Shown: in pieces, positions 42,147 to 51,404 of the stretch
How the letters are laid out: every line of letters starts with the position of its first letter
How positions within the stretch are numbered: the stretch's first letter is position 1
Assembly (NCBI RefSeq): GCF_988243305.1
Contig: NZ_OZ547136.1
DNA: 64,000 nt
Strand: one strand, 5' to 3'
Translations under genes and position numbers: made by a program
Notes under the pieces: model-generated
Database searches by the model: none
Seen by the model: the letters and a program-made list of their open reading frames with translations, nothing else
Told to the model about the DNA's origin: nothing

Positions 42147-42418
42147 GTATTCGTATTGAAATTGGCGAACGTTATGTCGTTACCAGTGACAGCTTTCAGT
42201 TTATTCTCCACGAGAAAAAGAGAGCGGAAAGCGGTAAAAACGCCGGTCAGGAATGGCTGGCGGTGGTTGGTTATTACCCGAAATTAGGCCAGCTCGTTTC
42301 CGGCCTGATGCATCACGATATTCTGACCGGAAGCGCAAAATCTTTTGCTGATTTAAACGCGCAGGTTGAGCAACTCAGCAAGCGTTGTTCAGAGGCTTTT
42401 GGCTCATATGGCCGTTAA
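42143..42418 (+). CDS. Hypothetical early protein (orf83-position)
   Basis: 91-aa ORF overlapping gpA start. Confidence 0.45.
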   Translation: MSIRIEIGERYVVTSDSFQFILHEKKRAESGKNAGQEWLAVVGYYPKLGQLVSGLMHHDILTGSAKSFADLNAQVEQLSKRCSEAFGSYGR

Positions 42419-44684
42419 AGCCTCCGGGCGTTTTGTCCCTCCGTCAGCATTTACCGCAGGCACCGGTAAGGCGTTTACCGGTGCTTATGCATGGAACGCG
42501 CCACGCGAGGATGTCGGGCGCGAAAGACCTCTTACACGTGACGAGATGCGTCAGGTGCAAGGTGTTTTATCCACGATTAACCGCCTGCCTTACTTTTTGC
42601 GCTCGCTGTTTACTTCACGCTATGACTACATCCGGCGCAATAAAAGCCCGGTGCACGGGTTTTATTTCCTCACATCTACTTTTCAGCGTCGTTTATGGCC
42701 GCGCATTGAGCGTGTGAATCAGCGCCATGAAATGAACACCGACGCGTCGTTGCTGTTTCTGGCAGAGCGTGACCACTATGCGCGCCTGCCGGGAATGAAT
42801 GACAAGGAGCTGAAAAAGTTTGCCGCCCGTATCTCATCGCAGCTTTTCATGATGTATGAGGAACTCTGCGATGCATGGGTTGATGCGCATGGTGAAAAAG
42901 AATCGCTGTTTACGGATGAGGCGCAGGCTCACCTGTATGGTCATGTTGCTGGCGCTGCACGTGCTTTCAATATTTCCCCGCTCTACTGGAAAAAATACCG
43001 TAAAGGACAGATGACCACGAGGCAGGCATATTCTGCCATTGCCCGCCTGTTTAACGATGAGTGGTGGATTCATCAGCTTAAAGGCCAGCGTATGCGCTGG
43101 CATGAGGCGTTACTGATAGCTGTCGGGGAGGTCAATAAAGACCGTTCTCCTTATGCCAGTAAACACGCCATTCGTGATGTGCGTGCGCGCCGCCAGGCAA
43201 ATCTGGAATTTCTTAAATCGTGTGACCTTGAAAACAGGGAAACCGGCGAGCGCATCGACCTTATCAGTAAGGTGATGGGCAGTATTTCTAATCCTGAAAT
43301 TCGCCGGATGGAGCTGATGAACACCATTGCCGGTATTGAGCGTTACGCCGCCGCAGAGGGTGATGTGGGGATGTTTATCACGCTGACCGCGCCGTCAAAG
43401 TATCACCCGACACGTCAGGTCGGAAAAGGCGAAAGTAAAACCGTTCAGCTTAATCACGGCTGGAACGATGAGGCATTTAATCCAAAGGATGCGCAGCGTT
43501 ATCTCTGCCGTATCTGGAGCCTGATGCGCACGGCATTCAAGGATAATGATTTACAGGTCTACGGTTTGCGAGTCGTCGAGCCACACCACGACGGAACGCC
43601 GCACTGGCATATGATGCTTTTTTGTCATCCACGCCAGCGTAACCAGATTATCGAAATCATGCGTCGCTATGCGCTCAAAGAGGATGGCGACGAAAGAGGA
43701 GCCGCGCGAAACCGTTTTCAGGCAAAACACCTTAACCGGGGCGGTGCTGCGGGATATATCGCGAAATACATTTCAAAAAACATCGACGGCTATGCACTGG
43801 ATGGTCAGCTCGATAACGACACCGGCAGGCCGCTGAAAGACACTGCAGCGGCTGTTACCGCATGGGCGTCAACGTGGCGCATTCCGCAATTTAAAACGGT
43901 TGGCCTGCCGACAATGGGGGCTTACCGTGAACTACGCAAATTGCCTCGCGGCGTCAGCATTGCTGATGAGTTTGACGAGCGCGTCGAGGCTGCACGCGCC
44001 GCCGCAGACGGTGGTGATTTTGCGCTGTATATCAGCGCGCAGGGCGGGGCAAATGTCCCGCGCGATTGTCAGACTGTCAGGGTCGCCCGTAGTCTGTCGG
44101 ATGACGTTAACGAGTACGAGGAAGAAGTCGAGAGAGTGGTCGGCATTTACGCGCCGCATCTCGGCGCGCGTCATATTCATATCACCAGAACGACGGACTG
44201 GCGCATTGTGCCGAAAGTTCCGGTCGTTGAGCCTTTGACTTTAAAAAGCGGCATCGCCGCGCCTCGGAGTCCTGTCAATAACTGTGGAAAGCTCACCGGT
44301 GGTGATACTTCGTTACCGGCTCCCACACCTTCTGAGCACGCCGCAGCAGTGCTTAATCTGGTTGATGACGATGTTATCGAATGGAATGACCCGGAGGTCG
44401 TGAGGGCGCTCAGGGGCGCATTAAAACACGACCGGAGAACGCCAAACCGTCAGCAAAGAAACGGAAGCCCGTTAAAACCGCATGAAATTGCACCATCGGC
44501 CAGACTGACCCGGTCGGAACGATTGCAAATTACCCGTATCCGCGTTGATCTCGCTCAGAACGGTATCAGGCCGCAACGATGGGAGCTTGAGGCGCTGGCG
44601 CGTGGCGCGACCGTAAATTATGACGGGAAACCTTTCACTTATCAGGTCGCTGATGATTGGCCGGGATTTTTGTTACCCATTTGA
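42408..44684 (+). CDS. A: P2 gpA-like rolling-circle replication initiator
   Basis: From MAVKASGRFVPPSAF…; HWHMMLF HUH-type motif. Confidence 0.9.
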   Translation: MAVKASGRFVPPSAFTAGTGKAFTGAYAWNAPREDVGRERPLTRDEMRQVQGVLSTINRLPYFLRSLFTSRYDYIRRNKSPVHGFYFLTSTFQRRLWPRIERVNQRHEMNTDASLLFLAERDHYARLPGMNDKELKKFAARISSQLFMMYEELCDAWVDAHGEKESLFTDEAQAHLYGHVAGAARAFNISPLYWKKYRKGQMTTRQAYSAIARLFNDEWWIHQLKGQRMRWHEALLIAVGEVNKDRSPYASKHAIRDVRARRQANLEFLKSCDLENRETGERIDLISKVMGSISNPEIRRMELMNTIAGIERYAAAEGDVGMFITLTAPSKYHPTRQVGKGESKTVQLNHGWNDEAFNPKDAQRYLCRIWSLMRTAFKDNDLQVYGLRVVEPHHDGTPHWHMMLFCHPRQRNQIIEIMRRYALKEDGDERGAARNRFQAKHLNRGGAAGYIAKYISKNIDGYALDGQLDNDTGRPLKDTAAAVTAWASTWRIPQFKTVGLPTMGAYRELRKLPRGVSIADEFDERVEAARAAADGGDFALYISAQGGANVPRDCQTVRVARSLSDDVNEYEEEVERVVGIYAPHLGARHIHITRTTDWRIVPKVPVVEPLTLKSGIAAPRSPVNNCGKLTGGDTSLPAPTPSEHAAAVLNLVDDDVIEWNDPEVVRALRGALKHDRRTPNRQQRNGSPLKPHEIAPSARLTRSERLQITRIRVDLAQNGIRPQRWELEALARGATVNYDGKPFTYQVADDWPGFLLPI

Positions 44685-44940
44685 GTAAAAATACAGCGTG
44701 ATTTTATATGTCTTTGAATGGATTATGCGAAACACCTCTAAGGTAGATGAGGAGCAATAGCGTGTTGAATCAGAAGGCTAAATTGTATTGAATCGTTAGC
44801 ATGTAATTGAAGGCAGCTATTTGATTCGAGTCATAAAAGAGCATCTATTTCGGTTAATAAAACCATTGCGAGTGACTTTATGTCGAAGCATAATTCATCT
44901 CGAGCGAAGTCTTGCTAGTCTTTCATCGGATTGATGACGG

Positions 44941-44975
44941 GCGCAAAAAAACCACCCTGGCAGGTGGTTTTTTTG
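44941..44975. terminator. Bidirectional intrinsic terminator (A-run/hairpin/T-run)
   Basis: aaaaaaaccaccctggcaggtggtttttttg. Confidence 0.6.
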
Positions 44976-44976
44976 T

Positions 44977-45090
44977 TTGAAGCATACTAAAGAAAAATAC
45001 TTACATGGATATTACTGACGTTTACTGACAAACCACTCGGACTACCATATGGATAGCCAAAGAGGGCCAGAACGAGAATGCAGTAATAGC
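44977..45090 (-). CDS. Candidate small protein (37 aa, MKKCYYCILVLALFGYPYG…) with strong SD
   Basis: AGGAGG 4-5 nt upstream of ATG on minus strand; below ORF-track size cutoff; ends at bidirectional terminator. Confidence 0.3.
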
Positions 45091-45822
45091 ACTTCTTCAT
45101 ATCGCCTCCTGTAAGCAGAGGGCAATTTCCGCCGATATATGCGCTTCTAAGGCGGAGTGACTATTGAGCGAAGTCTTGCCCTGAAATAATGCTCTGTTTA
45201 AACGCAAAGTGATCTGGCATATCACCGAACAGAGGACCTGAACAACACAACATATAGTATGTCGTTGTTTCTGGTTGCATTTTATGTTGTGTAATACTGG
45301 TTTTGCATCAAGGATGTTTGAGCTTTTTTTGATATAGCTCAAAGTAAAAAGCAGAGACTACGGATGATAAGGTCTTGAAAGCAATGTAAATTTTTTAAAG
45401 TTGTGAGTGGCTAGAAATGCACAGTTTCAATATGGCGGATTTAAACAAGTAATTAAAAATAGCGACACAAATTCCAATAAAATCATTAAGTTGCGTTTTC
45501 TGTGGAAACTTCGGTGACTCTGAAATTTTCTTTTAGTATCGCTGAGGTTTAACAACTCGCTGCGCAAGTAGTTAGTGTTTTTTTTAACTCAATATTCTGA
45601 TTTATAAGGTTTTTTATAAATCGTGGGCTGGTTGCGCATATTCATCTCGTGTTATCAGCAAAGATAAGCTCTATATGCAGAACTGAATGCATATATGATG
45701 TCGAAAATGTTATGGGAAAACGTGGATTAGTGTTATAGTAATGGCTGAAAAACAGCCTTGACATAAAATAACAACTGTGATATGGCTGTGCATACTTAAC
45801 TTTTTTAACGTAGGAGGCAACC

Positions 45823-46308
45823 ATGAGCTATGCAGCTAAAAAACTGCTTGACCGCTATTGGGATCGCCGACTACCTGTCGATCCGTTTAAGCTTGCTAAA
45901 GCGTGGGGTGCTCGTGTTGAAGCACTTGAGGAATCGGCTTATAACAACGATGGGTTAAGCGGTCTGGCTGTCATCAAAAAGGGTGTCCATAGGATTTATT
46001 TTGATTCTAGTGAACATTCTAATCGTCAACGTTTTACTGTTGCACACGAGTTAGGTCATCATGTGCTGGGGCATACCCAGGACGGAGAGTACCATCGGGA
46101 TAATGTCGGGAATTATTCAACAGGTGCTCGTGATTACCGTGAGGTTGAAGCAAACAAGTTTGCTGCTGAGTTGTTAATGCCTGAGTCTGCTATACGTCAA
46201 TTGGTATCCAGAGAAGGTATTGATAGCACTTTGAGATTAGCAAGCATCTTTAATGTATCAGAAGCCGCTATGCATTGGCGCTTAAAGAGCTTAGGAATGG
46301 CTTATTAA
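45823..46308 (+). CDS. ImmA/IrrE-family Zn metallopeptidase (DUF955-like)
   Basis: HEXXH motif HELGHHVLGH; strong SD AGGAGG; AT-rich cargo gene at P2 tin/old position. Confidence 0.7.
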   Translation: MSYAAKKLLDRYWDRRLPVDPFKLAKAWGARVEALEESAYNNDGLSGLAVIKKGVHRIYFDSSEHSNRQRFTVAHELGHHVLGHTQDGEYHRDNVGNYSTGARDYREVEANKFAAELLMPESAIRQLVSREGIDSTLRLASIFNVSEAAMHWRLKSLGMAY

Positions 46309-46374
46309 TTAGCCTTTAACTTTTAACCTGTTTAAAATCACCTTTACGTTTGTACATGTAAGGGTGATTTTTTT

Positions 46375-46974
46375 ATGGCTGATATTGATTTATCTGGACA
46401 GTCCCCAGAGCAAGGAACCACTCCTAAGGGCGATTTAGATCCTGATATCCTTATAAGGCGAGATAGACGGGATGGTATAGAGCGTAGAAGTATGCGATTA
46501 GTGCTCTCTGCCGTTGTGCTTTGTTTTGCTTGTACATTTCTATGGCAGGGGCTTAACTTTGCTTTGGCTGTTGGAAATGGCTTGCTGGAAGCGAAAAGCA
46601 GTATTGCCGCAGCGATAACACAAAAAGTAGATACACAAACTTGTGTTTCAGCAGAAAAATGTTCTGCTTTATCTTCGGATCCGAAGATGGCTGATGAGAG
46701 GATAACACCATCTTCAGACACTAATAAAGTTAGAAAATCTATTTCTGGTTTATCCACCGATTGGTTATCGGCCAGTTCTCTAATAGCTATTGTTGCATTC
46801 ATCCTTGGTGTGGGTTTAACTTTGCTTTTGACTCTTCTTAAATCAGCATTTCAACACCCGACAGATAAAGACTTTAGAACAAAGTCGACATCTAATACTA
46901 TTGAGTTGGCCACGCCAATCAGTGAATTAATAATTGGTGTTCTGAATATAATTAAAGACAAACTATCTAAGTAA
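46375..46974 (+). CDS. Small membrane protein (two predicted TM helices), co-directional with the metallopeptidase
   Basis: Hydrophobic stretches LVLSAVVLCFACTFLWQGLNFALAVG and LIAIVAFILGVGLTLLLTLL; 66-nt gap after upstream gene. Confidence 0.5.
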   Translation: MADIDLSGQSPEQGTTPKGDLDPDILIRRDRRDGIERRSMRLVLSAVVLCFACTFLWQGLNFALAVGNGLLEAKSSIAAAITQKVDTQTCVSAEKCSALSSDPKMADERITPSSDTNKVRKSISGLSTDWLSASSLIAIVAFILGVGLTLLLTLLKSAFQHPTDKDFRTKSTSNTIELATPISELIIGVLNIIKDKLSK

Positions 46975-47056
46975 AGCATTAGTTGTGATTTTTTATTGGT
47001 TTTAGTGATAATACATCTCCAGTACTTATTGTTACTGGAGAGTATTTTTAGTCGTT

Positions 47057-47998
47057 TTATATTTTTAATGTTAGTGAATGATATTCACGAGAGTTCACGT
47101 TCGATGTGATGTAATCGGGGGCGTTAACACCAAGAATCGCAACGAGTAATCGGCAAATTAAAGCCTGCATTTGTTGTAATATGTCATCTCCATATTGATA
47201 ATTGTTAATAGTGGTAAAGCCAAGTGGTTGACCATGAAACATAGCTTCATGAAAGTTTTCATTGCGGATGTTTGTAATGTTTTTTTTACCTGTAACCCAT
47301 GATGGTCGTGGTATTCCATAAGTTTTGCAGATCCACTTCAAGCGCCTGGAGTGATTTAGAGTCTTTTCTGTACACTTGTTCTTTTCTGCCCATGTTAAAG
47401 CAAAGCAACTATCCAGTGCCATATAAAGATACTGGAATTTTTCGAAGCTAAGGTATTGTGGGTTTTGGGATAAAAATAGTGCATGCACTATTGCTGCTAT
47501 ATTTATTGGTGCGTGTTTGGTTTTTGTCTCGCTAGACATGTATTTGAGTGCTAATTCTATAACCTCTTTTTCAGAGCACTTGACCAGAATAAAGTCAGTT
47601 AATTTGCTGGGTTTTATTGGGGTTGCGTCTAAAAAACCGGCATCAGTAGTTGTTAATCTTATCCCTTTGAAAAAAGACAGACACCACACAGCAAAATTGA
47701 GAGTTTCTAGTGAAGATGTATTTTTTAATTTTAGTGAGTGTGTTTTGGGTAAGCCAAATACTCGTTGGCTAAAAGGCATTGTGGATATGCCTCCATTGAG
47801 GTTATATACTTCTTGGTTTCCTGGGTATATCCAACCGTTAATAACATTTCTGTGATTGTTTATAAGATTTGTTTTTTCCGCTAGACCGGGTAAAGTAAGT
47901 AAAGAAAAATCATCAGTTTCAACGTTAACTTCTACTGGATAGTATCCAAACTCAGCTTCAATATCATTGGATTGCTGTTCGTCAACTTTACCTTGCAT
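47057..47998 (-). CDS. Hypothetical protein, 313 aa, AT-rich, no recognised domain
   Basis: ORF with GGAG SD; transcribed from cos side toward gpA. Confidence 0.5.
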   Translation of the reverse strand: MQGKVDEQQSNDIEAEFGYYPVEVNVETDDFSLLTLPGLAEKTNLINNHRNVINGWIYPGNQEVYNLNGGISTMPFSQRVFGLPKTHSLKLKNTSSLETLNFAVWCLSFFKGIRLTTTDAGFLDATPIKPSKLTDFILVKCSEKEVIELALKYMSSETKTKHAPINIAAIVHALFLSQNPQYLSFEKFQYLYMALDSCFALTWAEKNKCTEKTLNHSRRLKWICKTYGIPRPSWVTGKKNITNIRNENFHEAMFHGQPLGFTTINNYQYGDDILQQMQALICRLLVAILGVNAPDYITSNVNSREYHSLTLKI

Positions 47999-48236
47999 AC
48001 ATTGCTCCGGTCAAAAATAGGCTCGATAATTCTCGTAAGCCTATCATGTTCGCAAAGTATCCATACCTGTGGATTTTGTAAATTTAAGTTGATTTGTCAT
48101 TAAATAAGCCGTTGCATGCAACAAGTGAATGTTTTTGCATGCGTCGGGGATGTCCGTTCAGGCTGCGTGCGGTCAGGACTGGTGCGGATCCATAGTATCT
48201 ATGCAACTGCATTAAAACCGCCCCATGAAGCGGGCG

Positions 48237-48255
48237 GGCGAGGCGGGGAAAGCAC
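48237..48255. other. P2-type cos site (19-nt cohesive end GGCGAGGCGGGGAAAGCAC)
   Basis: Exact 19-mer as recalled for P2 cos, in GC-rich region upstream of Q. Confidence 0.65.
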
Positions 48256-48424: not shown

Positions 48425-49459
48425 TCAGCCGTTGTCGGTGTCCAGTGAGTAGTTTTTAAAGCGGATGACCTCCTGACCGAGCCAGCCGTTTATCTCGCGG
48501 ATCCTGTCCTGTAACGGGATAAGCTCATTGCGGACAAAGACCTTTGCCACTTTCTCAATATCACCCAGCGACCCGACGTTCTCCGGCTTGCCGCCCATCA
48601 ACTGAAAAGGGATGCGGTGCGCGTCCAGCAGGTCTGCGGCGCTGGCTTTTTTGATATTAAAAAAATCGTCCTTCGTTGCCACTTCACTGAGCGGGATAAT
48701 TTTAATGCCGTCGGCTTTCCCTTGCGGGGCATAGAGAAACAGATTTTTAAAGTTGTTGCGGCCTTTCGACTTCACCATGTTTTCGCGGAGCATTTCGATA
48801 TCGTTGCGATCCTGCACGGCATCAGTGACGTACATGATGTATCCGGCATGTGCGCCGTTTTCGTAATACTTGCGGCGGAACAGCGTGGCCGACTCATTCA
48901 GCCAGGCAGAGTTAAGGGCGCTGAGATATTCCGGCAGGCCATACAGCTCCTGATTAATATCCGGCTCCAGCAGGTGAAACACGGAGCCGGGCGCGAAAGG
49001 TGTCGGCTCATGGAAGGACGGCACCCACCAGTAAACATCCTCTTCCACGCCACGGCGGGTATATTTTGCCGGTGAGGTTTCCAGTCTGATGACCTTACCG
49101 GTGGTGCTGTAACGCTTTTCCAGAAACGCATTACCGAACACCAGAAAATCCAGCACAAAGCGGCTGAAATCCTGCTGGGAAAGCCACGGGTGCGGAATAA
49201 ACGTTGAAGCCAGAATATTACGTTTGACGTAAATCGGTGAGCTGTGATGTACGGCAGCACGCAGGCTTTTTGCCAGACCGGTAAAGCTGACCGGTGGCTC
49301 ATACCATCTGCCGTTACTGATGCACTCGACGTAATCCAGAATGTCACGGCGGTCGAGTACCGGCACCGGTTCACCAAAGGTGAATGCCTCCATTTTCGGG
49401 GCGCTGGCGGTCATTTTTTTTGCCGCAGGTTGCGGTGTTTTCCCTTTTTTCTTGCTCAT
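48425..49459 (-). CDS. Q: Portal protein gpQ
   Basis: 344 aa P2 Q-like. Confidence 0.9.
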   Translation of the reverse strand: MSKKKGKTPQPAAKKMTASAPKMEAFTFGEPVPVLDRRDILDYVECISNGRWYEPPVSFTGLAKSLRAAVHHSSPIYVKRNILASTFIPHPWLSQQDFSRFVLDFLVFGNAFLEKRYSTTGKVIRLETSPAKYTRRGVEEDVYWWVPSFHEPTPFAPGSVFHLLEPDINQELYGLPEYLSALNSAWLNESATLFRRKYYENGAHAGYIMYVTDAVQDRNDIEMLRENMVKSKGRNNFKNLFLYAPQGKADGIKIIPLSEVATKDDFFNIKKASAADLLDAHRIPFQLMGGKPENVGSLGDIEKVAKVFVRNELIPLQDRIREINGWLGQEVIRFKNYSLDTDNG

Positions 49460-51231
49460 TAGTAAAACTCCAGAATGGTGGATGTCAGCGGGGTGCTGAT
49501 ACCGGCGGTGAGTGGCTCATTTAACAGGGCGTGCATGGTCGCCCAGGCGAGATCGGCGTGGCTGGCTTCCTCGCTGCGGCTGGCCTCATAGGTGGCGCTG
49601 CGTCCGCTGCTGGTCATGGTCTTGCGGATAGCCATAAACGAGCTGGTGATGTCGGTGGCGCTGACGTCATATTCCAGACAGCCACGGCGAATAACGTCTT
49701 TTGCCTTGAGCACCATTGCGGTTTTCATTTCCGGCGTGTAGCGGATATCGCGTGCGGCGGGATAGAACGAGCGAACGAGCTGGAACACGCCGACACCGAG
49801 GCCGGTGGCATCAATTCCGATGTATTCGACGTTGTATTTTTCGGTGAGTTTGCGGATGGATTCAGCCTGGGTGGCAAAGTCCATGCCTTTCCACTGGTGA
49901 CGCTCAAGTATTCTGAATTTGCCACCGGCCACCACCGGCGGTGCCAGCACCACGCATCCGGCACTGTCGCCACGGTGTGACGGGTCGTAACCAATCCAGA
50001 CCGGGCGGGAGCCGAACGGATTCGCGGCAAACGGCGCATAGTCTTCCCATTCTTCCAGCGTGTCGACCATGCAGCGTTGCAGCTCCTCGAACGGGAACAC
50101 CGACGCCTTGTCGTCAACAAATTCACACATGAACAGGTTTTTAAAATCGTCGGCGCTGTTTTCGCGTTTAAGCTGCTCAATGTCGAACAGCGTGCAGCCA
50201 CCTTTCAGGGCGTCCTCAATGGTGACAATCTGCCGCCACTGACCGTCCGCACAGAGAAGCCCACCGGCAAGAGCGTTATGACTGACGTCGATTTCCACGC
50301 GTTCGGCGGCGCTGGCGCGTCCCCGGTTGAACAGTTCACCCGACCAGAACGGGTAGGCGTCGTGCGCCAGCGTGGACGGGGTGGAGAAATAGGTCGAGCG
50401 CAGGTGACTCTGTGAGGCCATACCTGATGCCACCTTACGCAGTACCTGAAAATTCGGTATCCAGAAAATCTCGTCGACGTACAGGTCGCCGTTATGGCTC
50501 TGCGCGGTGTTGGAGTTGGTGCCGAGAAAAATCAGTTTTGCGCCGTTATTGCCCAGGACAATTGGGTCACCGGTCAGGTCAACGTCAACCAGCCGGGCAA
50601 AGGCGATGATGTATTCGCGGAACACATACGCCTGCGTTTTACTGGCCGACAGAAAAATCTGGTTATGACCGGTTTTCAGGGCGCGCAGCAGCGCCTCGCG
50701 GGAAAAATAAAACGTCGCGCCAATCTGGCGGGATTTCAGGATATCGCGGATGCGGTGCTCAAGCCCTGCGCGATACCAGTGCAACTGATATTCGAAAGAC
50801 TGCTCAAAGAAAATCTGCTCCAGCTTTTCGATGGCCTCGTCACTGAAAAAATTCTTTTTCGGTTTGCGACGCCCGCCTTTGTTGCGGTTAGCGACGTTCG
50901 GATTAAAGTCTGCCTCGTTGCCGGTCTGACTGTAACGGTTGACCCGTGCCAGTCGTTCAATCTGGCGTCCGAGCAGGTCAATTTCCTTGAAGTCACCGCC
51001 GGTTTTCTGCGGTTTGATGATGAGCTGGGTCAGCCGCGCTTCCAGACTCATTTCGACACGGCTGATGGGGGCAACGCTGTCCCAGCCGTCGCGCTGTTTC
51101 CAGCTCTGCACCGTCGGGCGTTTCATCTGCAACATGGCGGCAATCTGCGGCACGGAAAATCCCTGCCAGTACAGCAGCGCCGCCTGACGACGCGGGTCGT
51201 GTAAAAGAGTGGTGTCTGTGGTGATGGTCAT
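49459..51231 (-). CDS. P: Terminase large subunit gpP
   Basis: From MTITTDTTLLHDPRRQAALLYW…; ORF-track start at 51261 is an upstream extension. Confidence 0.9.
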   Translation of the reverse strand: MTITTDTTLLHDPRRQAALLYWQGFSVPQIAAMLQMKRPTVQSWKQRDGWDSVAPISRVEMSLEARLTQLIIKPQKTGGDFKEIDLLGRQIERLARVNRYSQTGNEADFNPNVANRNKGGRRKPKKNFFSDEAIEKLEQIFFEQSFEYQLHWYRAGLEHRIRDILKSRQIGATFYFSREALLRALKTGHNQIFLSASKTQAYVFREYIIAFARLVDVDLTGDPIVLGNNGAKLIFLGTNSNTAQSHNGDLYVDEIFWIPNFQVLRKVASGMASQSHLRSTYFSTPSTLAHDAYPFWSGELFNRGRASAAERVEIDVSHNALAGGLLCADGQWRQIVTIEDALKGGCTLFDIEQLKRENSADDFKNLFMCEFVDDKASVFPFEELQRCMVDTLEEWEDYAPFAANPFGSRPVWIGYDPSHRGDSAGCVVLAPPVVAGGKFRILERHQWKGMDFATQAESIRKLTEKYNVEYIGIDATGLGVGVFQLVRSFYPAARDIRYTPEMKTAMVLKAKDVIRRGCLEYDVSATDITSSFMAIRKTMTSSGRSATYEASRSEEASHADLAWATMHALLNEPLTAGISTPLTSTILEFY

Positions 51232-51404
51232 GAATACCTCGCCGTGATGAATACACGGCAAGGCTACTGAGTCGCGCCCCGCGATTCGCTAAGGTGCTGT
51301 TGTGTCAGTGATAAGCCATCCGGGACTGATGGCGGAGGATGCGCATCGTCGGGAAACTGATGCCGACATGTGACTCCTCTAATCACTATTCAGGACTCCT
51401 GACA

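Follow-up and report, generated by a model that had tools for sequence, protein, structure and literature searches.

A stand-alone gene in the cos-proximal hotspot of a P2-like prophage encodes a predicted HEPN ribonuclease with a candidate role in anti-phage defence

What is the function of a single gene that lies beside the cos site of a P2-like prophage, in the slot where phage P2 carries its own exclusion genes? This question was raised by a window of 64,000 nucleotides from contig NZ_OZ547136.1 of RefSeq assembly GCF_988243305.1 (the window is this whole stretch of DNA, and all coordinates are positions in it unless another locus is named). The gene encodes a protein of 313 amino acids (aa) and appears as ORF313 (ORF, open reading frame), a hypothetical gene, in a record from 2006 (AM157369); we keep that name. 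The protein is very probably a catalytic HEPN ribonuclease (RNase), as predicted from its conserved residues and structural model, and we consider it reasonably probable that it works as a stand-alone, prophage-borne, single-gene anti-phage system of the abortive-infection type. We infer the defensive role because a HEPN RNase domain is combined with defence-island neighbours in other genera, which supports an original prediction, made from the DNA letters alone, that the gene may serve in defence or exclusion. The features of the protein on which this reading rests are as follows.

47057..47998, minus strand: ORF313 coding sequence (313 aa plus stop, from the list of ORFs), encoding a predicted two-domain HEPN RNase
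47249..47266, minus strand: predicted catalytic Rx4H motif, R245-N-E-N-F-H250, followed by E251 (from conservation and the structural model)
47099..47578, minus strand: C-terminal HEPN-like helical domain, residues 141-300
47579..47962, minus strand: N-terminal alpha/beta domain, putatively sensory or regulatory, residues 13-140 (from the secondary structure of the model and conservation in a 109-sequence alignment)

ORF313 is a genuine gene, beyond a chance reading frame, because it has a full-length match to phrog_5937 (PHROGs, E 3e-205; a family of unknown function), 603 homologues in a protein collection clustered at 90%, and a ratio of nonsynonymous to synonymous substitutions (dN/dS) of ~0.15 against six other alleles from P2 hotspots. 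The family comprises 654 clusters at 50% identity and extends across the Proteobacteria, including Enterobacteria, Pseudomonas, Acinetobacter, Aeromonas, and others. Among 5426 complete Escherichia coli genomes the gene was found in 98, always on the chromosome and always annotated as 'hypothetical protein', and it is present in 7 of 50,697 phage records.

No catalytic motif had been recognized in the protein originally. This was wrong, as residues 245-250 (RNENFH) form an invariant HEPN Rx4H motif. The signature of HEPN RNases is Rx4-6H with a polar residue (N, D, or H) after the arginine, placed at the end of helix 3 (Anantharaman et al. 2013, PMC3710099), and R245-N246-x3-H250 has exactly this form of motif and polar residue. 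Conservation was followed in alignments of 28 homologues (A1), of 32 sequences reaching down to 25% identity (A2), and of 109 sequences (A3). R245 and H250 are invariant in all three, that is, to 25% identity, while N246 and E251 are likewise invariant in A1 and reach 95% and 94% in A3, respectively. The motif is kept at the same place in 204 of 207 full-length family members, the other three being partial matches. An AlphaFold2 model of the monomer built from A3 (pLDDT 94.5, pTM 0.92), much more confident than the first model, arranges residues 13-140 into strands and two helices, followed by helices at 143-155, 163-176, and 184-206, an insert at 216-227 that carries H216 and R219, and helices at 241-250 (the motif) and 273-288 (with R283). 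Helix 241-250 thus closes, on its C-terminal side, with the Rx4H motif, after which comes a small hairpin. Two further residues are invariant in A3, namely E186, which opens the long helix 184-206, and R283 in the last helix. As for the second acidic residue of HEPN domains, typically part of an Ex3[KR] element in helix 2, E186 is invariant and D196 is conserved at 90%, with no K or R at +4. The spatial nearness of R245, H250, E186, and R283 and the geometry of a dimer are predictions drawn from the model. An alternative is that the match in fold is no more than that of helical bundles in general, and that ORF313 is a non-catalytic HEPN-like binder of nucleotides or RNA that acts by sequestration, in regulation, or in another role; beside an arginine and a histidine that stay invariant through all three alignments, we judge this very unlikely. 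In a PDB profile search the region around the motif weakly matched the N-terminal end of the E. coli ribonucleotide reductase R2 (E 0.01, independent E value (i-E) 0.17), which was rejected as chance.

The N-terminal domain has near-invariant residues of its own in A3 (F17, G18, W56, R79, T86, H87 at 99%, G112, R114, and D135), and its conserved aromatics are F17, W56, Y58, F81, and F102. The mean frequency of the top residue in A3 is 0.49 in this domain versus 0.46 in the HEPN part. Sequence-profile and structure searches gave no confident fold assignment for it. The sole sequence-profile signal was a weak, non-significant likeness of residues 2-59 to bacterial RyR-repeat domains (E 0.004-0.7, i-E 0.3-18), which we did not accept, given no match to the Pfam RyR profile and a different predicted secondary structure.

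Structure prediction followed by Foldseek, one of the checks that had been proposed for this protein, linked ORF313 to AFDB proteins labelled 'Apea-like HEPN'. Full-length matches with TM scores of 0.65-0.9 were obtained to entries of ~300 aa named 'Apea-like HEPN domain-containing protein', and proteins of 420-470 aa named 'ApeA N-terminal domain-containing' were matched over the full length too, but less strongly (E 2e-5 to 1e-2, TMq 0.4-0.5). Members of the ORF313 family themselves bear the former name in UniProt, AFDB, and UniRef, as do members of the Ec1ApeA group in UniRef and AFDB, and we took these labels as a lead, not as a test. Foldseek against PDB (copy of April 2026) returned nothing, and no ApeA structure was detectable in that copy.

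On the one hand, ORF313 resembles ApeA (Gao et al. 2020; Ec1ApeA WP_000706972 and Ec2ApeA), its nearest counterpart in function, in several respects. Both are single genes without a partner, both have a C-terminal HEPN domain with R-N-x3-H (RNKITH in Ec1ApeA, RNENFH in ORF313), both carry a conserved non-catalytic N-terminal part, and both occur in defence islands and on mobile elements. On the other hand, ApeA is a protein of ~560-600 aa whose HEPN is split and whose N-terminal domain is helical, with a Mid domain as well, and in which the N-terminal part and HEPN form the pocket for the activating ligand; it assembles into a decameric ring, with pdNG as ligand and tRNA as target (10.64898/2026.01.26.701840; 10.64898/2026.03.20.713152). 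ORF313 differs in having 313 aa and a ~130-aa alpha/beta domain plus HEPN, as against three mostly helical domains. The PADLOC hidden Markov model (HMM) for ApeA (PDLC02157) matches Ec1ApeA and four relatives (E 0 to 1e-6, down to 18% identity) and 0 of 21 members of the ORF313 family. ORF313 as a canonical ApeA was therefore rejected, since this HMM, hhalign, and the domain architecture all fail to place it there. The ApeA/BMEI1217 family is described as having a beta-rich N-terminal domain of ~300 aa with conserved aromatics, followed by a C-terminal Rx4H HEPN (Anantharaman et al. 2013, PMC3710099), and its 467-aa 'minimal' representative Bm1ApeA has been reported to protect against DNA phages. 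The 420-470-aa Foldseek matches are in keeping with this family. ORF313 shares this architecture, a beta-containing N-terminal domain with aromatics fused to a C-terminal Rx4H HEPN, but its N-terminal domain is ~130 aa rather than ~300 aa long. A frameshifted relative could be aligned over the motif only (E 0.54), a comparison that is uninformative. Taken as a member of the HEPN superfamily, ORF313 is plausibly a distant, miniaturized relative of the Apea-like clade and not a member of ApeA. Two relatives of Bm1ApeA were seen to be split by frameshifts, one on a metagenome contig (L025 3001-4405, into ORFs of 161 and 176 aa) and one in Allorhizobium ampelinum (L024 3001-4220, ORFs of 301 and 240 aa), and the metagenome copy adjoins a GajA/GajB (Gabija) pair.

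A second single-protein HEPN system offers a functional parallel. DARNA/PD-T7-3 is an abortive-infection protein in which a non-catalytic domain senses single-stranded DNA and HEPN dimers cut the anticodon loops of tRNA (10.64898/2026.02.22.705581). Like DARNA, ORF313 is predicted to be a single protein that joins HEPN to a separate non-catalytic domain; the two differ in that DARNA (456 aa) has its HEPN at the N-terminus and a 300-aa helical domain at the C-terminus, and ORF313 has no match to the PADLOC models of PD-T7-3. Compared with these known single-protein HEPN systems, ORF313 is half-sized, carries a different N-terminal domain, and is undetected by current tools.

Does ORF313 act alone? 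It was found in at least five arrangements of the P2 hotspot with differing neighbours, the other P2-like alleles (69-78% identity) occupying the same place and strand as in the window. Here it stands beside genes for an ImmA/IrrE metallopeptidase and a transmembrane protein; in P2-EC67, 720R8, and strain 23AR0885 it stands beside ORF226 (226 aa) and ORF73/DUF2158; in 613R3 and APEC E18055 beside DinI, a tum-like gene, and an extra 334-aa gene; and in Yersinia phages and strain 2013C-4830 beside DUF3850, with or without IS2. Conversely, the P2 variant OU784750 has the pair of metallopeptidase and transmembrane genes without ORF313, and by comparison with it the stretch 46975-48113 of the window is a clean insertion of 1.1 kb. 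The pair as one system with ORF313 was rejected on this ground and because the two are listed as separate systems (11 and 21) by Rousset et al. In other genera the homologues (45-50% identity) likewise stand as single genes whose neighbours change from one context to the next, and no conserved partner gene was seen in the Pseudomonas, Aeromonas, Acinetobacter, and Providencia contexts. Judged from these comparisons of sequence, ORF313 is an autonomous, stand-alone gene, because its neighbours vary, its cassette is missing from a collinear hotspot, and no partner is constant in other genera; the proposal that it is an independent single gene was borne out in each of these respects.

The autonomy of ORF313 also bears on the possibility that it is a selfish HEPN toxin, part of an addiction module that keeps the prophage or the cassette by post-segregational killing together with an unrecognized antitoxin (a protein, an RNA, or a host factor). 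HEPN is the classic toxin of HepT-MntA and AbiF-type systems, the family lies on mobile elements in every context examined, and a small Xre-type helix-turn-helix (HTH) gene is found upstream of the homologue in Pseudomonas sp. HLMP. In contrast, more than 12 contexts showed no MNT gene or other conserved neighbour; specifically, the adjacent MNT gene of HEPN-MNT toxin-antitoxin pairs was seen neither in the window nor in the P2, Pseudomonas, Aeromonas, Acinetobacter, Providencia, and Stenotrophomonas contexts. HepT itself is a protein of ~130-140 aa with an adjacent MNT antitoxin that acts by AMPylation, whereas ORF313 lacks the MNT neighbour and has an extra N-terminal domain. Nor is there an upstream tandem repeat array as in type III (AbiF/ToxIN-like) toxin-antitoxin systems, and a repeat-encoded RNA antitoxin as partner was rejected, as no tandem or direct repeats suggest one. 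The ORF313 region holds no families of direct repeats, and its sole tandem repeat is a 15-nt unit, TCAGGCTGCGTGCGG, present twice at 48158-48187, outside the cassette and between the upstream region of ORF313 and cos. The one small ORF found nearby in other loci is a P2 backbone gene that is not in the window, and a toxin on its own would account for the large, conserved N-terminal domain less well than a regulator built into the protein. On this balance we regard the toxin explanation as rather unlikely.

That small ORF deserves a description of its own. It encodes 50-69 aa (…MAIVHRLQQIMVNENLTPDELVGCAEIVRDNY…APPPRRR, similar to PSP3 gp37) and lies convergent to ORF313, ~75 bp from its stop, in all six other P2 loci (L014 4231-4422 and L015 4114-4323, for example; an IS2 interrupts the copy of L016). 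Among phage records 34 have it, P2 and PSP3 among them, mostly without ORF313. As a partner of ORF313 it was rejected, being missing here and a backbone gene of 34 phages that mostly lack ORF313.

The contexts in other genera bring the association with defence. The island that holds the homologue in Pseudomonas aeruginosa also contains ParB/DUF932 genes, and a GajA/GajB (Gabija) pair is ~3 kb away; in Acinetobacter seifertii it is directly 3' of a gene for DUF4238, the domain of a validated defence protein of the P2 hotspot. Providencia has two copies, one after type I restriction-modification genes and a GmrSD-type gene, and the other in an island that has an integrase and genes for DUF3800, AbiH, and TIR. 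The homologue of Pseudomonas sp. HLMP is found between an integrase/Xre region and a resolvase, and that of Stenotrophomonas near the transposition gene TniB. In Aeromonas the homologue is chromosomal and always follows an AlkZ-like gene, a pairing that may be particular to this lineage. In Aeromonas veronii and its relatives (L010-L013; genes at 6684-7895 and 8001-8963) it was observed 106 bp 3' of a gene for a 403-aa AlkZ-like protein (PF06224), in the same orientation and amid housekeeping genes. Finally, in Acinetobacter guillouiae (L027, 7001-7936) the homologue is an opposite-strand moron among the head genes of a prophage whose portal is of P22 type and whose capsid is Phage_capsid_3. 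Found in P2-like prophages and in this P22-portal prophage, the ORF313 family is a moron of two or more phage lineages that are unrelated. The same A. guillouiae prophage encodes a RyR-domain protein, which is probably coincidental.

Carriage by phages raises another explanation, that the enzyme serves the phage, either in counter-defence through the degradation of cyclic oligonucleotides or as an RNA-processing or regulatory RNase that aids P2-like prophages when they are induced or face host immunity. Cyclic-oligonucleotide immune signals are degraded by some proteins of HEPN or ring-nuclease type, and some HEPN proteins do deplete cyclic oligoadenylate signals; the gene is phage-borne in both P2-like and P22-portal-type prophages; and a nucleotide signal might be bound by the conserved N-terminal domain. 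Against this, many homologues sit in non-phage chromosomal islands with defence systems and not with anti-defence genes, and the slot in P2 is a hotspot of lysogenic conversion and exclusion. Most P2-like phages, moreover, are without ORF313 (hence the 7 phage records given above), so it is dispensable for their life cycle. We consider a phage-serving role unlikely.

Several points weigh against reading ORF313 as a stand-alone defensive HEPN RNase. No defence phenotype is on record for any member of the family, and Rousset et al. 2022 listed ORF313 without a defence test. The HEPN domain by itself does not imply defence, since toxin-antitoxin proteins, RNA-processing proteins, and proteins that degrade signals have it as well. 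Dimerization, RNA target, and trigger are all assigned to ORF313 by analogy. The hhalign comparison of A3 with 31 canonical ApeA sequences (A5) aligned only 17 motif columns, with E 0.12. The N-terminal domain is as conserved as HEPN, unlike the fast-evolving, protein-sensing domains of immune sensors; this high conservation suggests that the domain binds a ligand that is itself conserved, or contributes to structure or catalysis, rather than being a fast-evolving sensor of variable phage proteins. Lastly, NCBIfam, PADLOC, and Pfam gave no informative match for ORF313. Pfam, whose models for Apea-like HEPN and ApeA_NTD1 are PF18739/PF18862, matched neither ORF313 nor the members of A1 and A2, and PADLOC had no match for ORF313 and 20 diverse relatives at E up to 10. 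The Pfam negatives are uninformative on an ApeA-type HEPN, because a Pfam-A scan of the founding Ec1ApeA (P0273) also found no HEPN_Apea or other significant domain; among precomputed Pfam assignments, too, there is nothing for any of the 39 canonical ApeA relatives.

How might a stand-alone defensive HEPN RNase of this size work? By analogy with ApeA, DARNA, HepT, and Csm6, ORF313 would be made in the lysogen and held inactive. Two HEPN domains would dimerize, so that the two Rx4H motifs build a composite, metal-independent RNase site. A cue of infection, sensed via the N-terminal domain, would switch the enzyme on; the cue may be a small ligand derived from a nucleotide, and HEPN residues such as H216, R219, R283, and Y296 would share in forming its pocket. 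Cutting of tRNA anticodon loops, the commonest target among ApeA, DARNA, PrrC, and HepT, or of other RNA would then stop translation and block the superinfecting phage. We also put forward, as a tentative and rather doubtful extension, that ORF313 founds a separate, minimal (~300 aa), self-contained class of HEPN immunity. Here T86-H87, R114, and D135 of the N-terminal domain together with H216, R219, R283, and Y296 would bind a small-molecule alarm and allosterically open the dimeric RNase, the sensor being unrelated to that of ApeA and the class being widespread and invisible to PADLOC and Pfam.

The gene, its position in the hotspot, and its single-gene status are already known. In Table S5B of Rousset et al. 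2022 (PMC9122126), system 11 of the P2 hotspot is a single protein without domain annotation, found at 218 of 18,150 loci and ranking as the 11th commonest system there, and its sequence is that of ORF313 with one substitution. The neighbouring pair corresponds to system 21 ('Peptidase_M78 + 2-TM protein', 148 occurrences) of the same catalogue (PMC9122126). The signature peptides NFHEA, FGYYP, and GFLDAT and two allele accessions were found in Table S5 only, and not in the table of tested systems. ApeA is absent from a preprint of 2026 about the hotspots of P2 and P4, which refers to HEPN only for Hailong, an unrelated P4 system. New with respect to the searchable literature are the HEPN identity, the predicted catalytic residues, the breadth of the family, and its association with defence islands. 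ORF313 is thus a common gene that is 'hypothetical' in every database and whose family is missed by current defence finders, and the HEPN assignment gives it a directly testable mechanism. If active, it would fill a known gap in the catalogue of the P2 hotspot, would be, at about half the size of ApeA, among the smallest HEPN defence proteins that combine sensor and effector, and would offer a compact model of how a single polypeptide can restrain its HEPN nuclease and then activate it. Single-protein HEPN defence is already known from ApeA and DARNA/PD-T7-3, and ORF313 would bring no conceptual surprise unless its sensor proves new.

The mobility of the gene can be read from the following elements.

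46975..48113, minus strand: ORF313 cassette of ~1.1 kb (likely terminator, gene, Shine-Dalgarno sequence, and 115 bp upstream), missing from the otherwise collinear P2 hotspot of OU784750
47016..47041, no strand assigned: hairpin between the convergent genes, with a 9-bp stem and an 8-nt loop (terminator scan of both strands)
48005..48008, minus strand: Shine-Dalgarno GGAG, 6 nt before the ATG (read from the sequence)
48073..48100, minus strand: candidate sigma-70 promoter ATGACA-16-CAAAAT (consensus scan, 9 of 12 matches), ~75 nt 5' of the ATG and within the cassette

In a blastn comparison with OU784750, homology of the window covers 44600-46406 and part of the gene for the transmembrane protein and resumes at 48114, and in OU784750 only 85 bp separate the end of that gene (4124) from the resumed homology (4210). 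At the level of DNA comparison this shows ORF313 to travel by itself, in a cassette of 1.1 kb that brings along an upstream region and a putative terminator. The hairpin is likely a bidirectional terminator, with a T-run that is good on the plus strand and weak on the minus strand. The homologue of AM157369 (P2-EC67) has an annotated ribosome-binding site at the same spacing as the GGAG of the window. Promoter-like sites in the region are no more numerous than in shuffled sequences, so the sigma-70 candidate counts as weak evidence. The upstream region of ORF313 is not homologous to the old-tin promoter of P2, and use of that promoter was rejected, because the only sequence shared with reference P2 is 48 bp adjoining cos. 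This stretch (48208-48255) ends in the cos 19-mer and is 98% identical to reference P2.

The surroundings of the cassette in the window are those of a P2 hotspot.

42366-44684, plus strand: gpA
45823-46308, plus strand: ImmA/IrrE metallopeptidase
46375-46974, plus strand: 199-aa transmembrane protein
48237-48255, plus strand: P2 cos 19-mer, the landmark of the cos-proximal hotspot (one exact match, 0 in shuffled sequences)
48425-49459, minus strand: portal gpQ
49459-51261, minus strand: terminase gpP

The original description of the locus agrees with this map. The ORF is AT-rich, with a GC content of 0.35-0.37 versus 0.52-0.59 in gpA, gpQ, and gpP, and its ATG start codon is preceded by a good Shine-Dalgarno sequence; it is transcribed from the cos side toward gpA, convergent with the genes for the ImmA/IrrE peptidase and the 199-aa transmembrane protein. 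The cos 19-mer is identical to cosR of the P2 reference NC_001895, where old and tin lie on the minus strand, start ~150 bp from cosR, and are transcribed toward gene A. The slot and strand of ORF313 are the same, so that its position does mirror that of P2 old. Old and Tin are exclusion genes of lysogenic conversion, and Old is now described as an abortive tRNase. The likeness is one of slot and orientation, as Old is a 586-aa protein with ABC-ATPase and TOPRIM domains and without sequence or domain similarity to ORF313, which is consequently no member of the OLD family.

Between gpA and the ImmA gene, positions 44685-45822 form an AT-rich stretch of 1.14 kb with no ORF above 81 aa and no RefSeq feature. 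A scan of the hotspot against Rfam gave nothing above the gathering thresholds, and the matches of this stretch are sub-threshold only (RNAI-like, 27.8 bits where the gathering score is 47). The stretch is 84% identical to the same interval of OU784750, no higher than the adjoining coding DNA. As for the pair of genes convergent with ORF313 (45823-46974, plus strand), no ORF for an Xre/HTH partner is visible next to it. Its 161-aa ImmA/IrrE (Peptidase_M78) protein matches capP in PADLOC at 1e-30, is RmrA-like, and corresponds to phrog_87, and its 199-aa protein with two transmembrane segments corresponds to phrog_8096.

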